From a phage: DNA of 56,697 nt. A program made the position numbers and the translations under genes. Below are positions 547 through 56,697 of the stretch, in pieces. Below the pieces are notes generated by a model. The model was not told the origin of the DNA. It made no database searches and saw only the letters and a list, made by a program, of their open reading frames with translations. Each line of letters begins with the position of its first letter. Position 1 is the first letter of the stretch. Location of the stretch: the sequence record PZ513998.1. One strand, written 5' to 3'.

Positions 547-1671
547 ATGAAATCAATCAAGGAACTTGTCGCGAGAAGTGCGAACAATCCCCCGGAGGTT
601 AAAGCACAAGGCGGTTATGAGGGTGCTCAGCGAAACTCGCGAGAAATGTATCGCTGGACGCCCGCAATAGTCTCTCCGGATCAGGAATTAGACGGCGGAC
701 AAAAAGAATTAGCCGATGCCCGGGTTCAAAACGTTATCCAGAATGACGGTTTTGCGTCCGGTGCCGTATCGATACATCGAGATAATATCGTCGGCTCTCA
801 ATACATGCTAAACGCTAAGCCGAATTTGTCCGCGCTAGGACTAAAAGGAGCTGACGCCGAAGCATGGGAGGAGGAGTTTCAAGACGTCGTAGAGTCGAAA
901 TTCAACGTGGCTGCGGACTCAACGGAAAACTGGTTTGATGTCACACGACGCAATTCTTTTACCGGCTTGGTTCGCCTCGCGGTGGCCCAAGCACTGATTT
1001 CCGGTGAAGTATTGGCATCGGCAGAATGGTCAAGAACCGCAGGTCGTCCTTTCAATACGGCCATTCAAATGATTAGCCCGCATCGACTGAGCAACCCGAA
1101 TAACTCGGCCAACACGAAAAACATTCGAGGCGGTGTTCATGTCGATGCGTTCGGACGACCAATCGGGTACTACATTCAAAACAGTTTCCCGGGAGAGAGT
1201 TTAATCAACGGTGAGAATCAAATGTGGCGATATGTTCCATCACGCAAACCGTGGGGACGTCGACAGGTTATTCACATCATGGAGCAAATTCTCCCGCACC
1301 AAAATCGCGGTATCTCAGACATGGTTGCAGCATTGAAGACCATTAGAATGACTAAGAACTTTCAGGAGATAACGCTACAAAACGCGGTAATCAATGCCTC
1401 GTATGCAGCCGCAATTGAGTCGGAGCTACCACCGGAAGCCGTTTACGCTCAGTTAGGTTTAGGGCAACGTCCGTTCGGCGAGATTATCCATGAGATGATG
1501 ACGAACGCAGCATCGTACTACGCGACTGCTAAAAACATGGAAATAGACGGCGCCAAGATCCCGCATTTAATGCCCGGCACTAAGTTGAACTTAAAACCGA
1601 TGGGGACTCCCGGCGGGATCGGCACGGACTTTGAGGAGTCGTTACTACGCCACATCGCAGCATCGTTATAA
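547..1671 (+). CDS. portal protein, lambda gpB family, N-terminal ~70% (ends at in-frame TAA)
   Basis: 374 aa colinear with lambda B from the N-terminus to the ...SLLRYIAAGL region (motifs MISPHRLSNPNN, NAVINASYAAAIESEL, AKIPHLMPG, SLLRHIAASL); homologs continue past this point; continuation found at 56182-56697. Confidence 0.8.
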   Translation: MKSIKELVARSANNPPEVKAQGGYEGAQRNSREMYRWTPAIVSPDQELDGGQKELADARVQNVIQNDGFASGAVSIHRDNIVGSQYMLNAKPNLSALGLKGADAEAWEEEFQDVVESKFNVAADSTENWFDVTRRNSFTGLVRLAVAQALISGEVLASAEWSRTAGRPFNTAIQMISPHRLSNPNNSANTKNIRGGVHVDAFGRPIGYYIQNSFPGESLINGENQMWRYVPSRKPWGRRQVIHIMEQILPHQNRGISDMVAALKTIRMTKNFQEITLQNAVINASYAAAIESELPPEAVYAQLGLGQRPFGEIIHEMMTNAASYYATAKNMEIDGAKIPHLMPGTKLNLKPMGTPGGIGTDFEESLLRHIAASL

Positions 1672-6411: not shown

Positions 6412-8445
6412 GTGGAATCGAAAAGAACGTTAATTTTTGACTATGAAACATATAGCGAACTAGACATAAAGAAAGTAGGCGGTCACAAGTATGCACAGCA
6501 CCCGTCTACTGAAATTCTAATGGTAGCGTGGAAGTTTACTGACTCGGACGAAATCGGTTTTTGGGACAACACAATGCCCGAAGAAGATTTAGACGAGTTA
6601 AAGGGATATTTGCGCGACGATAACATCATAAAACGGGCATTCAACGCGCAGTTTGAGCGGTTGATCACTAAACACGTCCTAGGTATCGACACACCGTATG
6701 ACGTCTGGCGTTGTACGATGGTGGCTGCGTACCACCGAGGTTTTACCGGCGGGTTAGACATGGTTGGTAAGGCTCTAGGTTTTAAAGGGGATAAAGCAAA
6801 AGACGCAGCAGGTAAACGCCTAATTCAGAAATTTTGTAAACCAAGAAAGCCAACTAAACTCGACAAAAGTACAAGACACGATGCGGAATCACACCCGGAA
6901 GAATGGGAAGCATTCGGAGCCTATTGCCGACAAGACGTGATAGCCGAAGAAAATATCGACCGCCGTCTGAGTGACATCAAGTATGACATGATCGAATTTG
7001 AGTGGGAAGTTTACGCGTTAGACCAGAAAATTAATGACCGCGGAATAAATATCGATAACGACTTCATCGAAGCAGCAATAAAGATGGCCGAGACACGCAA
7101 GCCACAGATTATCGATGAAATGCGAGAACTTACAGGGCTAGCCAATCCCGGGTCTCAGAAACAACTATTAGCGTGGCTACAACAAGAGGGATACCCGTTC
7201 AACGACCTATTAGCTGACACCGTGAAAAAAGTCATAAACGAGTATCCGGACAATGGGATCACAGAAAAAGCGTGTCGAGTTCTTAAACTTCGTCGTAAAT
7301 CTAACAAAACCTCTCTAAAGAAATACAACAAAATGTTAGATATTGAAAACGACGACGGTAGGGTACGCGGAACAATTCAATGCTACGGGGGTTCTCGAAC
7401 CGGACGATTCGCCGGGCGGGGCTTACAAACTCACAACTTCGTAAGAACACCGAAGATACTTGAAGACGTCGAAGCTACGGAAATCGCTAAAAAGCTAGTT
7501 CTCGACCAAGACATGTGGGCTTTAAACGTTTTTGCTGGCGAACCCATGGATATGTTGCCGGGGCTACTACGATCCGCACTAATCCCAACGGTAGGTCGTC
7601 GCTTCGTTGTAGCGGACTTGTCATCAATTGAATCGGTAGTAATAGGTTGGCTTACCGGCTGTAAGTGGTTCCTAGATACCTTGCGGGCTAAAAAAGACTT
7701 ATATCGCGCATTCGCCTCAGCATGGCTAAAAATTCCTTACGAAGACACCCTCCCATTCCGAGGAAAGGCAAAACCGGCCACACTAGGTTGCGGATATCGA
7801 CTAGGCGGTGGCGAACTTATTGACGGTAAGAAAACCGGACTTTGGGGTTACGGTGAAAACATGGGAGTCATGCTAACACAAGAGGAGGCTCACGCTTCGG
7901 TAGACGCATTCCGAGAGTTGTGCCCTGAGATTGTTGACGGTTGGTATAAACTTGAAGATTGCGTAAAAACCACCATTAAGACGCACAAGACAACCCGATG
8001 GAGATCGTTAGTATTCGGGTTTAAAAAACCGTTCTTATGGATTAAGTTGCCATCGGGGCGGAAACTTTATTACTACCGCCCACGCTTAGTAACAAACACC
8101 TACAAGAACCGCAGAGGTGAGACGTACACTCGTCAAGAAATAATGTACGAGGGTAAAAAAGATCAAGGCGGTTGGGGTGTTCAAACCACGCACGGCGGGA
8201 AATTGATTGAGAATATCGTTCAAGCCATAGCAAGAGATGTCCTAGTAAACGGCATGTTTAATGCGGAAGAAATAGGTTTCGATATCGTATTCCACGTTCA
8301 CGATGAAATCATAACGGAAGTCGACGAAGATGACCTGTTAGGGCTAGACGACCTCATTGATTGTATGGCAGCACCGATATCGTGGGCGCCGGGACTACCA
8401 TTAGGAGCAGCAGGGTGGGAGGGGTATTTTTACCGTAAAGATTAA
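6412..8445 (+). CDS. DNA polymerase, family A-like with 3'-5' exonuclease domain
   Basis: 677 aa, GTG start; exo motif FDYETYSE, motif A-like VADLSSIESVV, motif B-like RGKAKPATLGCGYRLG, motif C HVHDEI. Confidence 0.75.
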   Translation: MESKRTLIFDYETYSELDIKKVGGHKYAQHPSTEILMVAWKFTDSDEIGFWDNTMPEEDLDELKGYLRDDNIIKRAFNAQFERLITKHVLGIDTPYDVWRCTMVAAYHRGFTGGLDMVGKALGFKGDKAKDAAGKRLIQKFCKPRKPTKLDKSTRHDAESHPEEWEAFGAYCRQDVIAEENIDRRLSDIKYDMIEFEWEVYALDQKINDRGINIDNDFIEAAIKMAETRKPQIIDEMRELTGLANPGSQKQLLAWLQQEGYPFNDLLADTVKKVINEYPDNGITEKACRVLKLRRKSNKTSLKKYNKMLDIENDDGRVRGTIQCYGGSRTGRFAGRGLQTHNFVRTPKILEDVEATEIAKKLVLDQDMWALNVFAGEPMDMLPGLLRSALIPTVGRRFVVADLSSIESVVIGWLTGCKWFLDTLRAKKDLYRAFASAWLKIPYEDTLPFRGKAKPATLGCGYRLGGGELIDGKKTGLWGYGENMGVMLTQEEAHASVDAFRELCPEIVDGWYKLEDCVKTTIKTHKTTRWRSLVFGFKKPFLWIKLPSGRKLYYYRPRLVTNTYKNRRGETYTRQEIMYEGKKDQGGWGVQTTHGGKLIENIVQAIARDVLVNGMFNAEEIGFDIVFHVHDEIITEVDEDDLLGLDDLIDCMAAPISWAPGLPLGAAGWEGYFYRKD

Positions 8446-11484: not shown

Positions 11485-14160
11485 ATGTCTAACGTTTTCA
11501 AATCTCGTGGCCCTGAACTTTTCGACAATGGATACGAAGTCGTACCTATTACTCGTATCGACGCAACTGACAGCAAAGGGAAATTATTGTCTGGCGCGGG
11601 TAAAGCCCCGGCGTTAAAAGGGTGGCAGAAAATAGAGATCACTTCTGACATCGTTAATGAATGGGCGACGGGTAGTCGCTCTCGCTGTGGTGTGGGTATT
11701 CGTACCCACCGTAACCCTGCTGTCGATATCGACTGTTTAGACGCCGAAGCGTCAGAACACATGACGGCTTTCGTTGAGTCGGAAGTGGGCTTTGCTCCTA
11801 TCCGTGTTGGGCGTGAACCTAAAGCGCTACTCCTCTATTATACAGAACGTCCTTTCACAAAAGTAAAATCAACCATCTTCGTTGATGAAAACGGGAATGA
11901 AAACGCTGTCGAGATATTAGGAAGCGGGCAACAATTCGTTGCTTACGGTATCCACCCGGGAACTAAGAAACCGTATAAATGGGTTACTAAAGGCGAGTCG
12001 CCTGCGGAAAACCAAGCGGATTTTGACCTTGAAGAAATCACACTAGAAGACGCGAGAAAAATTATTGCGGAATTCGACCGGTATGCGAAAGAGCGCGGTT
12101 GGAAACCTTTAAAAAGTAAAAGCGGTACGGTCATCAAGCCATCTTTGGGCTACTACTTAGATGCTCCGGAAGAACTATCAGACTGGTCGGACGAGTCGGA
12201 CTTTGACGATGATGAAGACGATTGGGTCACTACTGATGATATCACCGATAAATGGGACGGTACTTACGAAGAACTTTACGAAATCTTCGAAAATGATATC
12301 GAACCATCTTACGATTACCACACTTGGATTCCTGTTCTGGCTGCACTTAAAGACGCCGAACGTGAGCCGGACGAGTTTAAAGAGATCGCGAGAATGTGGT
12401 CTGCTCGGGCCGAGGAGTCTTTCGATAACGATGCCTTTGAAGATAAATGGGAAAACGGTAATTTCAATCGTGTTGGTAAATACGCTAAGACATTACGAGG
12501 AGTAATTGCCGAAGCGGAAAAGATCCAAGGCGTTCGCGAAATTGAGGACGTAGTTATACCTTTATTCGAAAAAGCTACTGACTTGGCCGAGTGGACTTTA
12601 GCTGCCGACCGCCTACGTGAAACGTGGGCTTTCGGTTTAGAAAGAGAGACGGCCATAAACATTGCTTGCGAAAAGTATAAGAAAGTCACTAACGGGTTAA
12701 AACTTACGGACGTTCAAAAGAAACGATATCTTAGTATCGATTACTCTCTCTTTGACGCTCCCGAATGGTTGGCTCCTTGGGTTTATTGTACTACGGATAA
12801 CGAGTTTATTAACTTAGACAATAGAACCAGAATGAACCCTAAATCTTTCGCGAATGCCTATAACCGAGAAACTGTGAAGAAATTCGGGGTAGCTGCGGAC
12901 GTTTTCGCCACGGTTGAAAGACCCGTTCCTGTTATCCACGATACGATGTATTACCCGTTGATGCACGGTGAGATGCCTAAGAACAAATGGAAGCGGGTTC
13001 CGGGTATTAATGACAAGCGTGTTTTCGAATACAACGGTTTGACGTTCTTAAATACCTTTGACCATCGTTCCATGCCTGAGACCGCAACAAAAATTTCGAC
13101 CGCTGGATATAAGGCGATCGGGGAGGTAAAACGATACTTCGAAATACAGTATCCAGATCCAGACGAACGAAGACATGCGATGGACTGGATCGCGTGGGTT
13201 ATCAATAATCCTGTTAGAAAGATTAACTATATGCTTCTCGTTCTTGGTGGTCAGGGTTCCGGTAAAACCATCGTTAAGAAGTTTATGGAACACATGCTCG
13301 GCTCTGATAACGTCTCTACGATTTCGAATAAGGTTATCCATGGTAATTTTACCGGGTGGCAGTCTGGTCACATGCTCAAAGTTATTGAGGAAATATCGGT
13401 GAGTGGTCATCGCTACGACGTTATGAACTCATTGAAAGAGCCGATATCGAATGAAACGTTACAGATCGAAGCGAAGTACCGTGACCCACGCCAGTGTGTG
13501 AATACTTCGTCGTATATGGCATTTACCAATGATGTTGGTGCTTTGCCTCTTACATCAAGTGACCGTCGCTTCTTGTTAGTTCGTAGTGCGTTCCAGCACA
13601 AGCGTGAAGTCACTGAATACCTACGGAAAGACCCTAATTACTTTAAACGGTTTGAGAAAGCCTTTACTAAACACGCACCGGAGATCCGCAAATGGTTTAG
13701 CGAGTGGGAGTATTCCGAGGGCTTCAAACACGATGGTAACGCTCCTGAAACGGTGAGTATGGGAAGCATGTCTTTAGCGTCAGAAGACGATTTCACCTCC
13801 GTAGTAATGGGGGCCGTAGATGATTGTGAGAAAGAGTTAGAATTTACATCGGGGATCACAGACGAAGTAATTTTCATTCCATCGGCAGTAGATTTAGTCC
13901 GAGATAGGTCTAAGGTTCCTAACGGGAAAATAATATATCGCATACTCGCTGAATATGGTTTCTTCCGGCCTGTGGATTCTCGTACACAAATAAGATTTAA
14001 TGACGTAAGAGGACAAGTTGTTGTCGCGAATAGACATAAATGGCTCTATCCTGATGGGAGTGTCAACGTAGATAAGATTAAAGAGCATTTAGAGGAGAAC
14101 GAACGCCGGGTAGAAGAACAAGAAAGCAAGAGAGAGTTAGAAGAAACTGACGTTTTCTAA
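11485..14160 (+). CDS. DNA primase-polymerase (prim-pol) fused to D5/P-loop helicase
   Basis: 891 aa; N-terminal prim-pol-like segment (GKAPALKGW, VGIRTHRNPAVDIDCLD, EILGSGQQFVAYGIHP); C-terminal Walker A LVLGGQGSGKT. Confidence 0.75.
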   Translation: MSNVFKSRGPELFDNGYEVVPITRIDATDSKGKLLSGAGKAPALKGWQKIEITSDIVNEWATGSRSRCGVGIRTHRNPAVDIDCLDAEASEHMTAFVESEVGFAPIRVGREPKALLLYYTERPFTKVKSTIFVDENGNENAVEILGSGQQFVAYGIHPGTKKPYKWVTKGESPAENQADFDLEEITLEDARKIIAEFDRYAKERGWKPLKSKSGTVIKPSLGYYLDAPEELSDWSDESDFDDDEDDWVTTDDITDKWDGTYEELYEIFENDIEPSYDYHTWIPVLAALKDAEREPDEFKEIARMWSARAEESFDNDAFEDKWENGNFNRVGKYAKTLRGVIAEAEKIQGVREIEDVVIPLFEKATDLAEWTLAADRLRETWAFGLERETAINIACEKYKKVTNGLKLTDVQKKRYLSIDYSLFDAPEWLAPWVYCTTDNEFINLDNRTRMNPKSFANAYNRETVKKFGVAADVFATVERPVPVIHDTMYYPLMHGEMPKNKWKRVPGINDKRVFEYNGLTFLNTFDHRSMPETATKISTAGYKAIGEVKRYFEIQYPDPDERRHAMDWIAWVINNPVRKINYMLLVLGGQGSGKTIVKKFMEHMLGSDNVSTISNKVIHGNFTGWQSGHMLKVIEEISVSGHRYDVMNSLKEPISNETLQIEAKYRDPRQCVNTSSYMAFTNDVGALPLTSSDRRFLLVRSAFQHKREVTEYLRKDPNYFKRFEKAFTKHAPEIRKWFSEWEYSEGFKHDGNAPETVSMGSMSLASEDDFTSVVMGAVDDCEKELEFTSGITDEVIFIPSAVDLVRDRSKVPNGKIIYRILAEYGFFRPVDSRTQIRFNDVRGQVVVANRHKWLYPDGSVNVDKIKEHLEENERRVEEQESKRELEETDVF

Positions 14161-14294
14161 ATGTTGTACAAAAATCACCCAACACACATGATCGAATTAC
14201 CTTTATATAGCTTATATATATATTTTTCTATTTTTCCTTTCCTATCTATTTTTTCTTTCTTCTGGAATTTCTATTTTATTATCTATTACTGTGT

Positions 14295-14350
14295 TTGCTG
14301 TGTCAGAAAGAAAGTAATATAGTTGCTGTGTCAGAAAGAAAGTAATATAG
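14295..14350. repeat. tandem direct repeat, 2 x 28 bp (TTGCTGTGTCAGAAAGAAAGTAATATAG)
   Basis: two perfect adjacent copies at 14295-14322 and 14323-14350, inside an AT-rich stretch. Confidence 0.9.
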
Positions 14351-15090
14351 TAAAAACAATAACTTACCTTGGAACACCTATTGGAACATCAGCCGGCACA
14401 GCAATTTCCTGTGACACACCACCAGCCATGGTAATACCTAAAACGGCGCATAACTATTTGATATTATTACGGAATTACCTAAAATACCGGTCATTACGGT
14501 AAATGATGTCCCCTATTGCTAAAGCCTGTGCGTCGCTCTCCGTGCTTTCTAGAGAAGAATCACTTTTAAATCGAAAAAGGTACTTGGACGAGTTGTCCGG
14601 TTGGGCGGGGGTGCGCAGAGCCGTCTTCCAGAAATTTGTCCGGGATCTGCCATAGATGTTTGGGTGTTCGGGTGGGCGGTGTTGTGGGTTAGATGTGCTT
14701 CAAATTGTAAGCGTGTGCGATTGTGCGAGGCGATCGCGGTGTTAGTTGTCGGTCGTATCCGTTGAGCGGGGGTATAGCGCCTCGGGTGAACACGCCGATC
14801 GGGAACGTCGTTTTTACGTTTTGTGCGGGTGTTCGGGTGTGCGGTTGTACCGCATGACGTTTTTACAAATATAAATGCGGTCGCGCCAGCGCCTACCCAC
14901 CCAACACCACCACCCCAAGCCCTCACTCTCCCCCATTCCCCCCCACCCTATGGAAAATTGCCGTAAAGCCATGTGTTGCGTCCTCAGCGTGTTTTGCCCG
15001 CTAGGTAAGGCCGATGTATTACCTACGATGAGTTATGCCCGTGTGGTTCGATTGAGGGCGGAAGACGGCGCTTTGTTTGTTCCGACTTAA

Positions 15091-15330
15091 ATGAGCATTC
15101 TCAAGATGCTACTCTCCGGTGTGTACAACGTGGGCGCCGTGTGTTTCTTCGGCCTAATTTCGATTTATATTCTCTCGTTCTTTTTCCGCGCCCTACAAAA
15201 CCACGGTTTCGACGGTCTACACCGCACTACGTTAGTTCTCGAATCAATCGGCGCTATCATGATGGTCGTCTTCATGGTTTGCGTTGCGATCTTGGTGTTC
15301 GCCGGAGGCGTCGCCCTAACAATCCGGTAG
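15091..15330 (+). CDS. hypothetical small membrane protein (2 predicted TM helices)
   Basis: 79 aa; hydrophobic stretches GAVCFFGLISIYILSFFF and IGAIMMVVFMVCVAILVFAGGVAL. Confidence 0.3.
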   Translation: MSILKMLLSGVYNVGAVCFFGLISIYILSFFFRALQNHGFDGLHRTTLVLESIGAIMMVVFMVCVAILVFAGGVALTIR

Positions 15331-19422: not shown

Positions 19423-19425
19423 TAA

Positions 19426-19995
19426 ATGGCAGAATTAGCATACACTAAAGCGTCTATCTTCCAATCTATCGTTGATGATGTTAGTACGGGTCTACCTAAA
19501 GGAACTTCATTAGATACCCGCGGAGATTTCGAAAATCAATTACGCGACCTTTTCGAAGAAAATAATCTTATGAATGCGCCGGAATGTATCAGCGTCGACT
19601 ACTTCGGGGAAGCATGGGAGATCGTCCAGTCTAGCGAGTTTGATTCTGTTGAGCTAGAAACGCCTTTAGATTTCAGCGGGTGCAAAAGTTCATTAAAATG
19701 TTTGATGATGGAAGCTAACGCATTAATAAGCGCGTCTTGGCGTGAACAAGTGGAAGCCTACATCGAAGAACTGGCCGAAGCACTGGAAGAAGTTGTCGAG
19801 GGTTGCGAGGAGTTCGGAACAATCGACGAACTGGTAATCACTGGCGGGTGCCGTTTCGGTCACATTCCACACCTAAGAGAGTTCGATGCTGGCGACTTTT
19901 CTGTGTGCATGTGGGCGCCGAACGAAGCCGGAGAGTCTGAAATTTATTATAATTTCCGAGGTCTGGAACTGCGCGGGGTTGTATATCATGGGTAA
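19426..19995 (+). CDS. hypothetical acidic protein
   Basis: 189-aa ORF. Confidence 0.3.
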   Translation: MAELAYTKASIFQSIVDDVSTGLPKGTSLDTRGDFENQLRDLFEENNLMNAPECISVDYFGEAWEIVQSSEFDSVELETPLDFSGCKSSLKCLMMEANALISASWREQVEAYIEELAEALEEVVEGCEEFGTIDELVITGGCRFGHIPHLREFDAGDFSVCMWAPNEAGESEIYYNFRGLELRGVVYHG

Positions 19996-20373
19996 GTGGA
20001 CGGTGTGACATACTTTTCATCAGTTCCTAAAGATACCAATTCACGCCGGGCGAGATCCCGGCTTTCTTCGTTCTTGAGTCCGCACGAAAAAGAGTTACAA
20101 CTATCTACGCACGACATACAGACTATTTTAAACCTAGCTAATGCGTTTTACTTCCGAGCTGATCCGGAGAGTAAACCGGCTTACTCAGACAACAAAACTA
20201 TTGTAAGCCTTCGCATATCCGGAATAGTCGAAGATGATCGGGGCTGGCTCATTATCCGCCGGCATTTCCTTAATTCTGGTCAGTGCTGGAAGACGTTGCA
20301 CTTAGAGGTTATTTTTACCCACATAGAAAATCTGACCTTATGTGAGTGTAAAATTCCCTATTTCCCCGATTGA
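19996..20373 (+). CDS. hypothetical protein
   Basis: 125-aa ORF, GTG start. Confidence 0.25.
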   Translation: MDGVTYFSSVPKDTNSRRARSRLSSFLSPHEKELQLSTHDIQTILNLANAFYFRADPESKPAYSDNKTIVSLRISGIVEDDRGWLIIRRHFLNSGQCWKTLHLEVIFTHIENLTLCECKIPYFPD

Positions 20374-20565
20374 ATGATGAAGAATAAAATCACATTAAAC
20401 AGCGGTATGATTTTAATCGCTGACGACGAAAAAGTTACGGTAAACGCAGACGGTTCGCTATTCTGTCCGGCGTGGGATATGCGCTTTATGTTAACTCGTA
20501 ACATTTCATATAATCGAACGGTTACACATCGAGAGGTGAAAAGTTTTGAGCGATTATACAGTTGA
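20374..20565 (+). CDS. hypothetical protein
   Basis: 63-aa ORF. Confidence 0.2.
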   Translation: MMKNKITLNSGMILIADDEKVTVNADGSLFCPAWDMRFMLTRNISYNRTVTHREVKSFERLYS

Positions 20566-20808: not shown

Positions 20809-21135
20809 ATGAGCAAACAAATTCCTTTCGATCTTTTCCGTTCTGCGCATCGTCTGACTGTCACAGGGATCGAGGCGAACTATGAGCAATATGTCGTTCT
20901 CTCCCATAAAGCCGACGCGGATTATCTGGAAAAGTTCATCGATAACTTATTGAATGATTTCCCTTTCCCTGTTGCGATATCAGAAGAAAGAGTGAGTAGC
21001 CCGTCTTCTGTAATTATCCGGTCGGGCTTGATGGTGTCCGAGATTAAAAAGGATATAAAAAGCGGTAAGGTGGCTAATATGTATTTATCGGAGCCGGTTC
21101 GAACTCGCAACGATAATATTATTATTCACCCGTAA
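20809..21135 (+). CDS. hypothetical protein
   Basis: 108-aa ORF. Confidence 0.25.
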   Translation: MSKQIPFDLFRSAHRLTVTGIEANYEQYVVLSHKADADYLEKFIDNLLNDFPFPVAISEERVSSPSSVIIRSGLMVSEIKKDIKSGKVANMYLSEPVRTRNDNIIIHP

Positions 21136-21204
21136 ATGTATGTACGGGCGCACCGGTGGGCGCGTTTCCTTTGTTCCGTCAGAATTTTTATAGATAAAAA
21201 CTTG

Positions 21205-21233
21205 TTGACACCGGCCCGAGGTGTTGCTAATAT
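21205..21233 (+). promoter_or_regulatory. sigma70-like promoter candidate (TTGACA - 17 nt - TAATAT)
   Basis: consensus -35 TTGACA at 21205-21210, 17-nt spacer, -10 TAATAT at 21228-21233. Confidence 0.45.
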
Positions 21234-21262
21234 TCTCAGCACACAAACAAACTGATTGTACT

Positions 21263-21450
21263 TATCTACAAAAATTTCGGGCTTACTTCAAAAACCTCGC
21301 GGGCCGATGATTTTCTGTGACGATTTAAAAACTTTTCCGGCCGGCTTACTTCAAAAACCTCGCGGGCTGAAAAAATTCCCGTGAGTGAGAAATAAAAACC
21401 GGCCAATGGATTTATCTACAAAAATTAGAACCTTACTTCAAAAACCTCGC
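21263..21450 (+). repeat. three direct copies of a 19-bp motif CTTACTTCAAAAACCTCGC plus two copies of TTATCTACAAAAATT
   Basis: 19-mer at 21282-21300, 21345-21363, 21432-21450; TTATCTACAAAAATT at 21263-21277 and 21412-21426. Confidence 0.85.
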
Positions 21451-21474
21451 CGGTTGACGGAAATCCTCGGGTAA

Positions 21475-21906
21475 ATGATCGAGTCAGAAGATATTATTTT
21501 CGTAAACGGCGACAAACCTAAAATCGATAACTCGCCAGCGCTAGAAAGACGCAACACGGTTAGTGTAGAACTAGAACGAGAGTTAACCGCAGCGTCTTCG
21601 ATTCCGGACAAACTTACAGTAGTACCAACAAAAGGGAGACCAACCAGCATGGTAGGTATGATCGTATCGTTAGATGTCGGAGACGTGTTCACTAAATCCG
21701 AGTTTATTCTTGAAGTTTCAGGTCTCGACGCCATGAGCGAGAGCGTAGACCTGACTACACGAAAAGAAAAACTCAGACAAAGCGTAAAAGCGTCTATGAC
21801 ACACGCTAAAAAGAAAACTAAGGGCGAATATACTTTAGAAACGCACCACTTTATTACGCCGTTGGGTCGCCTTTACATTCAAGTTTTAGTGACCCGTATT
21901 TCCTGA
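21475..21906 (+). CDS. hypothetical protein
   Basis: 143-aa ORF. Confidence 0.3.
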   Translation: MIESEDIIFVNGDKPKIDNSPALERRNTVSVELERELTAASSIPDKLTVVPTKGRPTSMVGMIVSLDVGDVFTKSEFILEVSGLDAMSESVDLTTRKEKLRQSVKASMTHAKKKTKGEYTLETHHFITPLGRLYIQVLVTRIS

Positions 21907-22218
21907 ATGGAACGCAACGACAATTTAGAGCACACCACCCCCGCAGACCCGGATACGCAAATCGTCAAGTTGTTAGAGGGGAACCCGGATCTTTTAAAGC
22001 ACTTTTATAAACTTTCCGCATTAGCGGGAAACGTGGGGGAGATGGAACGCTCTTTCGAAGAACGAGTTGACGCCGTGTTTAAAGTAGGTATCCGCCTAGT
22101 CATGGTCGCGAGCAACCGGAAAAACCTTATCGTAACCGATGACGATGTGGCAAAGGCGGAGAACTCAACACTGGAAGTTAGCGAAAATAACGGCAATGTT
22201 AAATATATGATCAAGTAG
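21907..22218 (+). CDS. hypothetical protein
   Basis: 103-aa ORF. Confidence 0.3.
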   Translation: MERNDNLEHTTPADPDTQIVKLLEGNPDLLKHFYKLSALAGNVGEMERSFEERVDAVFKVGIRLVMVASNRKNLIVTDDDVAKAENSTLEVSENNGNVKYMIK

Positions 22219-22539
22219 ATGAAAAATTCAAACGTAGCACTCGCCATTGATTCCGTTTTGGTAAAAAAGAAAATTGATATTATCCCGGTTTTTAAATCGT
22301 TAGAGGAAGAATATCAAATGCGGATACAAGCGTCGTGGTCAGGCATCACCGCGCACACGCCAGAACGACGCATCTACACCCACGGCCACCCGACTACTAA
22401 GATGGCAACAACACCGGAACAACGTACAACGTATCGCCTCCGTCTATTGAAATTCCTACGGTGGCTCTACGCGAACAACTACACAACGGGGCCACTGTTA
22501 GAAATCAAATCGTGGCTAGAGGAGCAAGAGGAATGGTAA
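22219..22539 (+). CDS. hypothetical protein
   Basis: 106-aa ORF. Confidence 0.3.
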   Translation: MKNSNVALAIDSVLVKKKIDIIPVFKSLEEEYQMRIQASWSGITAHTPERRIYTHGHPTTKMATTPEQRTTYRLRLLKFLRWLYANNYTTGPLLEIKSWLEEQEEW

Positions 22540-22887
22540 ATGGTAAAGGTCTTATACAACAGCGAACAAGCGCAAGTAAACCAGTTGCGAGACCAGATTA
22601 AATCGCACACTGAGTCGTTTGAAACAGCGATGGCCGAAGTCGACCAGATCATTAAAGAAAATATCGAGACATACCTAAACGATATATCCGGGTTAATGAT
22701 GTCGATAGTTAGAGTGTATGACAACGCGGAGATTGAGGACAAAGCGGTGGCCTTAGATCTTGTTCACTCTAAAGCGGTAACTCGTTTAGCTGCTATCGAA
22801 GATAAGAGCATAGAACTACGCGCCCATATTGAAAACTTAGTATCCACCATTAAAACCGGAGTGATTAAAAACAATGAAACCATTTGA
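22540..22887 (+). CDS. hypothetical protein
   Basis: 115-aa ORF, predicted helical. Confidence 0.3.
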   Translation: MVKVLYNSEQAQVNQLRDQIKSHTESFETAMAEVDQIIKENIETYLNDISGLMMSIVRVYDNAEIEDKAVALDLVHSKAVTRLAAIEDKSIELRAHIENLVSTIKTGVIKNNETI

Positions 22888-23976
22888 ATGAAACCATTTG
22901 ATAAATTTATTGCTTTTGCAATATCTGAACCAGCAGACCCTAACAATACGACTTCGTTTTCCGCATTAGCTAACGGGACAGAAGACCAACTAAAACAACT
23001 AGGCCGAGAACTAGAAACAAGCCTGAGAAACTTACCGATCGGAGACCCAAGCGCTATGCAGTGGACGCGCCACGGTTTTGCTAAACCCGACGAGAACGCC
23101 GAACCGATCACCGTTGTAGATGAAGTCCTAGGGGACATGGAAGACACACCATACGTTATGATAGACGAAGCGGGTAAATATCTTGTGTTCACTTTCGAAG
23201 AACGTGCTCGAATGCTAAGCCCGACAACGATCAAGGACGAATTAGAGGTTAAAGTAAAAGATTGGATAGAACGAGTTGGTGACACCCCGACAAAACGTGA
23301 ACGTAATGATATGCGCGATGAAATCATCAATGACTTGTTGCCAAAGGCCACAATAAAGCGCACCAAGACATACGCCATGATCATCAAGGGTGTTCTTATT
23401 GTCTTCGCCGGTAGCAATAACATCGGTGAAAAAGTAGCATCGGCCGTAAGAAAGGTAGTAGGGTCTCTCCCAGTAGTACCATGGTTTGAGCATTCGGCCC
23501 TCATTACGGAGTTTCTAAAGAAAATCGCTACGGTAGACTTTGACCCGGAAGATGCAGTAGGCCAAGCGCTAGATAAATTTGAGATTGTCCGTAGTGCTAA
23601 AGTCTCCGCTGAAACCGGTGCGTACACTTTCAAAGATGTTTTTGACATCACGAATGACGTTTCCTTCAAAGAAGCGCTAGGACAAACTAACGGATACTCA
23701 TACCCTCTCGGGATCACCGAAGCGAATTTAGAATTACGACATGACGCCACAGACAGCCCTATCGGTTTTGTTCTTACGGCCAAAGGCGTTTTAAAGAGCG
23801 TAAATTGGAATGACGAGCCGGAAAATATTTTCGACGACTCAGTGTTTGACACGAACGAGGAACGGGAGCGTGCTCGATTTATTTTCTCTACGTGGGACGC
23901 TTACACCTTAGTTACGGCCGTGCTAGGAGCGCTACACAACGCAAACGCAAACCGATTTGTAGAAGACGATATGTAA
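22888..23976 (+). CDS. RdgC-like recombination-associated protein
   Basis: 362 aa; segment KRERNDMRDEIINDLLPKA...AVRKVVGSLPVVPWFEHS matches the RdgC core (…LKDEVLHSLLPRAF…LLRKSLGSLPVVPLSMEN). Confidence 0.6.
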   Translation: MKPFDKFIAFAISEPADPNNTTSFSALANGTEDQLKQLGRELETSLRNLPIGDPSAMQWTRHGFAKPDENAEPITVVDEVLGDMEDTPYVMIDEAGKYLVFTFEERARMLSPTTIKDELEVKVKDWIERVGDTPTKRERNDMRDEIINDLLPKATIKRTKTYAMIIKGVLIVFAGSNNIGEKVASAVRKVVGSLPVVPWFEHSALITEFLKKIATVDFDPEDAVGQALDKFEIVRSAKVSAETGAYTFKDVFDITNDVSFKEALGQTNGYSYPLGITEANLELRHDATDSPIGFVLTAKGVLKSVNWNDEPENIFDDSVFDTNEERERARFIFSTWDAYTLVTAVLGALHNANANRFVEDDM

Positions 23977-56181: not shown

Positions 56182-56697
56182 AACCTTTCATACGAACAGT
56201 TTAGCCGAGACTACACGAAGACTAACTATTCTTCCGCGAGAGCCTCAATGGGGGAAACATGGAAATTCATGCAGTCTCGCAAAAAGATCATTGCTGATGC
56301 TTTCGCTACAAACATTTATGCGTTGTGGTTAGAGGAGATGATAAACAAAAACGAAATCCCGTTGCCACGAGGAAAAACGAGCGACTGGTTTTACGAACCG
56401 TTAGTGAAAGACTGTTTAATTCGTTGCGACTGGATAGGTGCAGCCCGCGGTCAAATCGACGAGAAGAAAGAGACCGAAGCAGCTATCATGAGAATTAACA
56501 GTGGTCTGAGCACTCGTGAGAAAGAAATCGCTCGACTCGGCGAAGACTGGAGAGAGATTTTTAGGCAGTTAGAACGAGAAAAACGAATAAAAGATAAATA
56601 CGGGCTTGTTTTCTCCGGAGATGTGAGTAATATATCCGCTAACGAGAAAACAAACTCGGAAGATGACGAAGAAACTAACAGTGGGGATTCGGAATGA
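56182..56697 (+). CDS. portal protein, lambda gpB family, C-terminal fragment lacking a start codon
   Basis: open in frame 1 directly after the protease stop; first ATG only at 56248; translation NLSYEQFSRDYTKTNYSSARAS...CDWIGAARGQIDEKKETEAAIMRINSGLSTREKE is colinear with gpB residues following ...IAAGL (GVSYEQLSRNY...CDWIGSGRMAIDGLKEVQEAVMLIEAGLSTYEKE); continues exactly where ORF 547-1671 stops. Confidence 0.75.
   Translation, partial: NLSYEQFSRDYTKTNYSSARASMGETWKFMQSRKKIIADAFATNIYALWLEEMINKNEIPLPRGKTSDWFYEPLVKDCLIRCDWIGAARGQIDEKKETEAAIMRINSGLSTREKEIARLGEDWREIFRQLEREKRIKDKYGLVFSGDVSNISANEKTNSEDDEETNSGDSE

Follow-up and report, generated by a model that had tools for sequence, protein, structure and literature searches.

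What is the stretch at positions 21136-21474 of the phage sequence record PZ513998.1, in which a near-consensus σ70 promoter seems to be followed by three copies of a 19-bp motif? The initial annotation, made on the whole 56,697 nucleotides that were analysed (the window), took this stretch for a single regulatory block, in which repeats downstream of the promoter would serve as operator or iteron sites or as a phage-specific promoter set. The question touches on the Casjensviridae, phage chi and its relatives, which serve as flagellotropic model and therapy phages. To our knowledge, neither an origin nor operators or temporal control elements have been described for this family.

Make-up of the window and the native locus

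First of all, the window has to be distinguished from the genome from which it was made. The window of PZ513998.1 is an artificial concatenation of permissive gene calls, each set in coding orientation, with the uncalled DNA dropped, which we regard as practically certain. When the sequence is walked from base 1, passing from each stop codon directly to the codon that follows it, 85 consecutive plus-strand open reading frames (ORFs) tile all 56,697 bases. These tiles, the shortest of which is 90 nt, begin with ATG, GTG or TTG, except for one truncated gene at the end, and those around 21136-21474 abut with neither gaps nor overlaps. All but one of the 85 are exact substrings of Escherichia phage E21 (MN604053.1; Casjensviridae, Lavrentievavirus), our native reference, in which 28 of the 84 lie on the plus strand and 56 on the minus strand. 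BLAST shows that the gene order of the window is that of E21, with each native minus-strand gene individually flipped; 3,241 bases of E21 have been lost, and overlapping calls have left 277 bases in duplicate. The E21 arrangement is common to all 28 close relatives. With tiles flipped and uncalled DNA dropped, the position and orientation of the promoter relative to the repeats in the window are thus an artefact, and strand, spacing, neighbourhood and intergenic signals (promoters, terminators, operons, skew) all need to be re-read on native E21. The relationship between promoter and repeats that made the block look like one unit is absent from the phage itself.

Other irregularities of the concatenation are seen far from the block. 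The tiles at 1-546 are out of order, being E21 19875-20054 plus 20048-20413, whose genomic place is between window positions 19425 and 19426. The origin of the circular E21 record falls within the portal gene, whose two parts occupy window 547-1671 and 56182-56697; tile 547-1671 is the sole tile that is not an exact E21 substring, and the last tile starts with AAC and has no start codon.

The block itself is three abutting gene-caller tiles, all read on the plus strand of the window, which were cut from a divergent intergenic region of ~470 bp at E21 22222-22690. The first tile (21136-21255) is a spurious 39-aa ORF call, the reverse complement of E21 22232-22351, and carries the promoter in flipped form. 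The second (21256-21384) corresponds to E21 22366-22494 and the third (21385-21474) to E21 22491-22580; these two calls overlap natively and were set end to end, so that at their junction (21381-21388) the sequence GTGA is doubled at 21384/21385. At the junction 21474/21475, 110 native bases (E21 22581-22690) are missing, and this lost segment holds an A/T-rich stretch, a second promoter and the ribosome-binding site of the next gene.

In E21, the divergent region lies between a leftward gene at 21895-22221 on the minus strand and a rightward gene at 22691-23122 on the plus strand. The leftward gene encodes 108 aa, is the first gene of the leftward operon and stands in the window at 20809-21135 on the plus strand; it matches E21 exactly as its reverse complement and is annotated on the opposite strand in both E21 and pPM_01. 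The rightward gene (window 21475-21906, plus strand, 143 aa) is the first gene of the rightward operon and encodes a DUF7609 protein (Pfam PF24582, E=2e-29; phrog_6647).

The near-consensus σ70 promoter at 21205-21233 stands as it was first described. TTGACA (21205-21210) and TAATAT (21228-21233), on the plus strand of the window, are separated by 17 bp and preserve 10 of the 12 consensus positions, with a TG ahead of the − 10 element, and the promoter is conserved in relatives: across eight Lavrentievavirus genomes, the − 35 element is invariant and the − 10 element is TAATAT or TAGTAT. The placement of the repeats downstream of it, on the other hand, does not survive the comparison with E21, since this promoter (P_L) natively lies on the other strand. 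Read leftward, P_L is followed by GAGG and the ATG of the 108-aa gene; it would drive this gene and, with its back to the repeats, the rest of the leftward operon. The second promoter, P_R, is found on the native plus strand as TTGACA-17-TAGTAT, followed by AAGGGG-N6-ATG of the DUF7609 gene, and both of these signals are missing from the window. Promoter prediction, which the initial annotation had proposed as a check, yields on the native locus only P_L (minus strand) and P_R (plus strand), and the repeats lie between the two − 35 elements. Comparison with the parent genome, a further check proposed there, places the repeats upstream of P_R and the DUF7609 gene.

The repeat elements and their conservation

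On the plus strand, exact copies of the 19-mer CTTACTTCAAAAACCTCGC start at 21282, 21345 and 21432, as had been reported, and no further copy is found in the window even when three mismatches are allowed, a tolerance at which 0.01 copies are expected by chance; three copies are thus far beyond chance. The 19-mer is the core of an asymmetric element of ~25 bp, which we call B, with the consensus CTTACTTSAAAAACCTNGCNGGYTG. In the 50 units from which the consensus and a position weight matrix (PWM) were built, TTACTT, A12 and C18 are invariant and G20-G21 are nearly so, the matrix amounts to 34 bits and the unit contains no internal dyad. The three copies in E21, all on the plus strand, are B1 (21282-21306, CTTACTTCAAAAACCTCGCGGGCCG, 42 bits), B2 (21345-21369, 43 bits) and B3 (21432-21456, 42 bits). 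The GC-rich tetranucleotides that were noticed after each 19-mer (GGGC, GGGC and CGGT) are indeed there and belong to the conserved 25-bp element. In the window the copies are spaced by 63 and 87 bp, within the range of about 60-90 bp first given, but the larger value is inflated by the duplicated 4-nt overlap GTGA and is 83 bp natively.

The second, shorter motif that had been seen twice is the 15-mer TTATCTACAAAAATT, here called A, on the plus strand at 21262-21276 (A1, 5 bp ahead of B1) and at 21412-21426 (A2, 5 bp ahead of B3). A further copy with one mismatch, A0 (TTATCTATAAAAATT), is present at 21183-21197 on the minus strand of the window; its native orientation is that of A1 and A2, and it adjoins the − 35 element of P_L at the position of an UP element. 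In native E21, the three B copies all face rightward and the three A copies share one orientation, giving the order leftward gene, P_L, A0, A1-B1, B2, A2-B3, A/T-rich stretch, P_R, DUF7609 gene. A scan of the complete native genome with the B matrix returns these three sites (42-43 bits) and nothing else at or above 8 bits. Apart from A and B, TAAAAAC stands exactly 44 bp past the start of both B1 and B2 (E21 22436-22442 and 22499-22505; window 21326-21332 and 21393-21399), and the repeated unit may therefore exceed 25 bp within this clade. The related GATTAAAAC comes after B3 natively and was dropped from the window.

The search for further copies was extended to relatives, whose loci were taken as the regions upstream of DUF7609 homologues, and arrays are found at the homologous locus. 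In all 14 genomes examined, a B array lies directly upstream of a conserved σ70-type promoter and the DUF7609 gene. Three to five same-orientation copies occupy the same place in E21, Kokobel1, three UViGs, Chi, Enc34, JC01, PatoteraRojo, Redjac, Seifer and XAP3, and the B copies of the relatives are always on the strand of the rightward operon, always between divergent promoters and in that intergenic region only. P_R is kept as TTGACA-17-TAnnnT in 11 of 11 genomes, its − 35 element starting 30-109 bp past the start of the last B copy. Helical phasing between the last copy and this − 35 element was considered and set aside: nine of the 11 distances fall into one phase window, but that window was chosen post hoc and the genomes are related. 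Among eight Lavrentievavirus genomes that are 96-100% identical, the B copies carry two substitutions only, one of them at a position that is degenerate in the consensus, and in distant Casjensviridae the repeat block is the only intergenic portion still aligned by blastn. The exact 19-mer is present in four IMG/VR contigs, and among 185,579 prokaryotic species genomes (one per species) the motif is found only on two phage-sized contigs of ~59-60 kb that had been binned into MAGs.

Spacing between copies is shared within clades yet irregular, with 63/83, 61/57/47/57, 51/71/43/49 or 72, 51/43/32/39 in Enc34 and 45/33/33/45/111 in JS26. The sequence TTCTMTAYAAAAATT, which is related to the 15-mer, precedes some B copies by ~5-10 bp in Chi, Redjac, PatoteraRojo, Seifer, Kokobel1 and XAP3, and an A/T tract, AAAATTTTTGAACG or similar, comes after other copies.

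Two genomes carry more distant versions of the array. In JS26 (Dunedinvirus), six diverged copies (GGTACTTGAGAAAGCCAGCSAGACC) at 6727-7030 lie between the leftward gp13 and a rightward promoter with gp15, whose product is a DUF7609 protein (Pfam E=7e-23). In Burkholderia phage AH2, about seven direct repeats of ~29 bp (GTGCCCTTCAGCGACCTGTCGGGCTG) occupy the same place, upstream of TTGACA-18-TAGAAT and the DUF7609 gene, and their regular spacing of 29 bp makes this the sole regular array among those examined. The AH2 repeat shares 12-16 of 25 positions with the enteric B, in a genome that holds 26 chance sites with at least 15 matches. The similarity in sequence is therefore only suggestive, and the claim of homology rests on position and architecture. 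On this basis, the range of the 25-bp element seems to reach from phages of Proteus and Salmonella to one of Burkholderia.

Some host labels met in this comparison look doubtful: identity to Proteus phages is 94-98% for the records named Staphylococcus phage SVV09-A, Enterococcus phage AS-M1_NWU and Pseudomonas phage E21, and 'Xanthomonas phage XAP3' has an enteric-type control region. The literature searched on the motif and on repeats in phages related to chi holds no description of the array.

Candidate binding proteins and possible functions

Our current understanding of how the array behaves during infection comes from the published work on JS26. Strand-specific RNA-seq recorded zero reads at 5, 20 or 40 min on the ORF call 'gp14' (PMC8754663), which covers five of the six JS26 repeats; mapping of reads in repeats can be lossy, and the silence is to be read with that caveat. 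Going by this, the array in E21 is apparently untranscribed as well. The leftward block by the genome end of JS26 (gp01-gp13) is early, highly expressed and mostly non-essential and the rightward block (gp15-gp45) is middle, according to the expression study and a transposon-sequencing (Tn-seq) report (PMC8754663; 10.64898/2025.12.19.695335). In the text of the Tn-seq report, gp15, the DUF7609 gene by the array, is essential, with non-essential genes on either side; by implication, insertions in 'gp14', and thus in the array, are tolerated (10.64898/2025.12.19.695335).

Taken as direct, asymmetric repeats at one locus that do not code, the B copies very probably act as double-stranded DNA, not as RNA or protein, and form an array of predicted binding sites for a sequence-specific protein. 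Since the array architecture persists across phages of gamma- and betaproteobacteria and the early genes are not conserved, a conserved, phage-encoded binder is favoured, and on comparative grounds this is the most likely source of the array-binding protein. The DUF7609 product, which is invariably adjacent, is the prime candidate. JS26 has two DUF7609 paralogues, gp15 (7132-7422) and gp28 (12636-13031); the short one (96 aa) stays by the repeat array and the long one with the RdgC module. Both are reported as essential by Tn-seq (10.64898/2025.12.19.695335). The predicted fold of the DUF7609 protein gave no informative match and lends no support either way to a role as binder. An acidic tail (...DDDEV or EDDEV) is present in the DUF7609 proteins of Chi, Enc34, PatoteraRojo and Seifer and absent from the E21, Kokobel1, JC01 and JS26 forms. 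A tail of this kind recalls those with which SSB-type proteins bind their partners.

Other candidates have been considered. JS26 Gp30, reported to be a winged helix-turn-helix (wHTH) protein (10.64898/2025.12.19.695335), is a further putative binder, but BLAST, Pfam and pairwise similarity reveal no equivalent of it in E21. The 106-aa E21 protein that is syntenic with Gp30 belongs to a single homologue cluster, and its single-sequence AF2 model is unusable (pLDDT 51). JS26 gp10, the one early gene reported there as essential (10.64898/2025.12.19.695335), was also set aside as a conserved binder, having no detectable homologue in E21 or at the other loci. Among host-type sites, the DnaA box and the motifs of IHF, σ28, σ32, σ54, σE, NarL, OmpR and the marbox were compared with B, and none matches its conserved positions.

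Of the functions that may be proposed for the array, we favour, with a probability of about 0.42, a role in controlling either the neighbouring promoter P_R, which reads rightward, or the change from early to middle expression; an iteron-type replication origin comes next, and then a pause in DNA entry. A sequence-specific DNA-binding protein would occupy the B array cooperatively and thereby determine how active P_R is, or when it fires, as early expression gives way to middle expression; P_L might be governed in the same way. Promoter control is favoured because the array lies just upstream of a conserved P_R, keeps a fixed orientation, apparently tolerates insertions and is found at a single locus. 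The B sites adjoin promoters, the array being placed between P_L and P_R, as expected of operators. No B copy overlaps either core promoter, however, whereas in classical repression the sites overlap the − 35 element, the − 10 element or the start site. The suggestion of operator or iteron sites in the initial annotation thus names the class that remains favoured, the repeats being direct, non-coding, confined to one locus, conserved in the family and, judging by JS26, apparently untranscribed, but the irregular spacing and the absence of core-promoter overlap fit it less well.

A replication origin, in which the B copies would be iterons for a phage initiator (DUF7609 or the prim-pol/helicase) and the divergent promoters and A/T tracts would aid opening, is possible but unlikely. 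Three to seven direct repeats of ~25-29 bp beside a small essential gene with its own promoter resemble the layout of an iteron replicon, the genome has only one such region, which seems not to be transcribed, A/T-rich tracts (AAAATTTTTGAACG and similar) follow many of the copies, and array and DUF7609 gene remain neighbours in a rearranged operon, too, such as that of JS26 gp15. As for iterons proper, at least three direct repeats of ~17-25 bp in one orientation are expected, and three to seven copies are indeed present in the 14 genomes; the regular, helically phased spacing that is likewise expected is seen in AH2 (29 bp), but most genomes have copies that are irregularly spaced and out of helical phase. 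No DnaA box is conserved either, since the resemblance of TTATCTACA to one is lost in relatives, which have TTATCTATA or TTCTCTATA, and an unwinding element is not clearly recognisable. Replication genes are found in another part of the genome, by a different divergent intergenic region, and the Tn-seq text on JS26, in implying that insertions in the 'gp14' array are tolerated, also speaks against an origin (10.64898/2025.12.19.695335). The GC skew of the native genome merely follows gene orientation and thus does not help in locating an origin.

A pause in DNA entry, similar to that at the injection stop signal (iss) of phage T5, is improbable. The first 9-14% of the genome to enter, with P_L and the small early genes, would end at the array and be available for expression at once, and the array would hold back everything else, including the strong promoter P_R, until an early or virion protein releases it. 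The position of the array is compatible with this. Both termini of the linear record of DanisaurMW, a close relative of E21, map to E21 ~14,500 (~14,499-14,510) and share a short GCGCAGAGC overlap, and E21 ~14,499-14,510 (window 14613-14629, inside the flipped tile 14503-14655) is thus a probable cos site, judged from the sequence records. Given the position of these termini, the leftward operon of E21 takes up all the DNA between P_L and the genome end. The array stands 7.9 kb (13.5%) inward of the physical end in the E21 clade, and in JS26 the distance is 6.7 kb (10.5%); in each case it is beside the early block. Around cos, a native region of ~1.4 kb that is free of genes (E21 13751-15160) was chopped into small, partly flipped calls at window 14161-15090.

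Further points in favour of an entry pause come from other phages. The Tn5 insertion hot-spot of JS26 covers exactly gp01-gp13, which the authors attribute to early-injected DNA, their prediction being that this end is the first to enter, and one gene of this early block, gp10, is essential (10.64898/2025.12.19.695335); in T5, the iss is found at 7.9% of the genome, within repeat regions that are conserved and untranslated (10.1101/866236). In addition, the block that counts as 'middle' in JS26 stands behind P_R promoters close to consensus. Against this, P_R of JS26 itself is weak (TTGCAC-17-TAGATT), and the middle timing is therefore explained more simply than by an entry pause. We also know of no mechanism by which a passing duplex would be recognised. 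Gp10 has no detectable E21 homologue, and the JS26 authors invoke a general lambda-like biphasic entry and not a signal (10.64898/2025.12.19.695335). The literature searched holds no direct demonstration of two-step DNA transfer for any of the Casjensviridae. If an entry pause were nevertheless to apply, the chi-like cos siphophages would be two-step injectors like T5.

Finally, there are readings in which the repeats would be promoters, RNA or protein, and these are improbable even when taken together. Tandem promoters, phage-specific or activator-dependent, with each B copy a rightward promoter, are very improbable. Every copy does face the direction of the rightward operon, the 3' end of B (GGYTGAC/GGTTGAA) resembles a − 35 hexamer and in native E21 TAAAAAC recurs 44 bp past the starts of B1 and B2. 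However, no − 10 element is conserved at a fixed distance across the 50 units, nothing inside the array passes the promoter scan, units spaced by only 29-33 bp, as in AH2 and JS26, have no room for a promoter each, and the ORF call on the JS26 array has no reads at 5, 20 or 40 min (PMC8754663). Since B occurs at one genomic locus only, it is not a dispersed phage promoter set, and that part of the initial proposal is not supported. A repeated non-coding RNA element, either a small RNA or a leader structure, is more improbable still; short conserved intergenic repeats can be RNA motifs, but here there is no Rfam match at E<=1, the folding energy is the same as that of shuffled sequences (z = -0.07), the unit lacks an internal dyad and no reads map to the JS26 array call (PMC8754663). 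Least credible is a small protein with a repeated GLLQKPRG peptide (QGF21917.1, a hypothetical protein, in E21; gp15 in pPM_01), for although such an ORF is called in the window (21256-21384) and in several GenBank records, it is annotated with 129, 135 or 216 nt, or not at all, among relatives that are 96-98% identical, the A-run after B2 varies by +/-1 nt and breaks the frame, copy spacing differs between genera, B1 and B2 do not share the frame of native B3, 83 not being a multiple of 3, and the JS26 counterpart has no RNA-seq reads (PMC8754663). The repeats are thus not the trace of a conserved protein product, which the initial annotation had named as the outcome that would speak against a regulatory role.

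With control of P_R or of the early-to-middle switch as the preferred reading, the 25-bp element and its strictly conserved partnership with a divergent early promoter, a σ70 promoter and an essential DUF7609 gene provide a testable handle on the early-to-middle switch, or on the start of replication, in the Casjensviridae, and suggest a candidate function for the essential DUF7609 protein.

Comparison with known systems

We thus turn to the systems that the array resembles, each of which it matches only in part. The first of these is the entry signal of T5. In both cases, a conserved cluster of untranslated repeats lies at the inner edge of a terminal segment of ~8-14% of the genome, and this segment carries small early genes with strong host-type promoters (10.1101/866236). 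In the first-step-transfer region of T5, which belongs to a terminal repeat, the dominant features are inverted repeats and palindromes together with paired DnaA boxes (10.1101/866236), whereas the array described here has simple direct repeats, cos ends, no inverted repeats and no conserved DnaA boxes.

The iteron arrays of lambda ori, P1 oriR, R6K, RK2 and pSC101 are a second case. They share with the B array the clustering of direct, asymmetric sites of ~20-25 bp at one locus, with the promoter of a small essential gene adjoining and A/T-rich DNA nearby. Their repeats are spaced by ~22 bp, in phase. B spacing, in contrast, is irregular (32-111 bp), and no Rep-like initiator, DnaA boxes or unwinding element have been identified. 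The JS26 array also differs in that it appears tolerant of transposon insertions, going by the Tn-seq report (10.64898/2025.12.19.695335).

The two remaining comparisons are with control regions and centromeres. In the divergent early control regions of lytic and temperate phages, such as that of lambda (pR/pRM-oR), back-to-back σ70 promoters enclose regulatory sites and a temporal switch is controlled, as is proposed here; B sites, however, are direct and not dyad-symmetric, occupy 170-300 bp in all and stay clear of the core promoters. Direct-repeat operator and centromere arrays, such as ParR-parC of plasmid R1, and asymmetric phage operators, such as those of P1 C1, also consist of asymmetric sites close to a promoter region, and in these as in the B array cooperative binding would be expected and a candidate binder is encoded next to the sites. 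They differ in that B sites spare the − 35 and − 10 elements and that these phages are lytic and have no partition system. The B array is best regarded as a cis-acting repeat array that is specific to this phage family and belongs to a divergent early control region.
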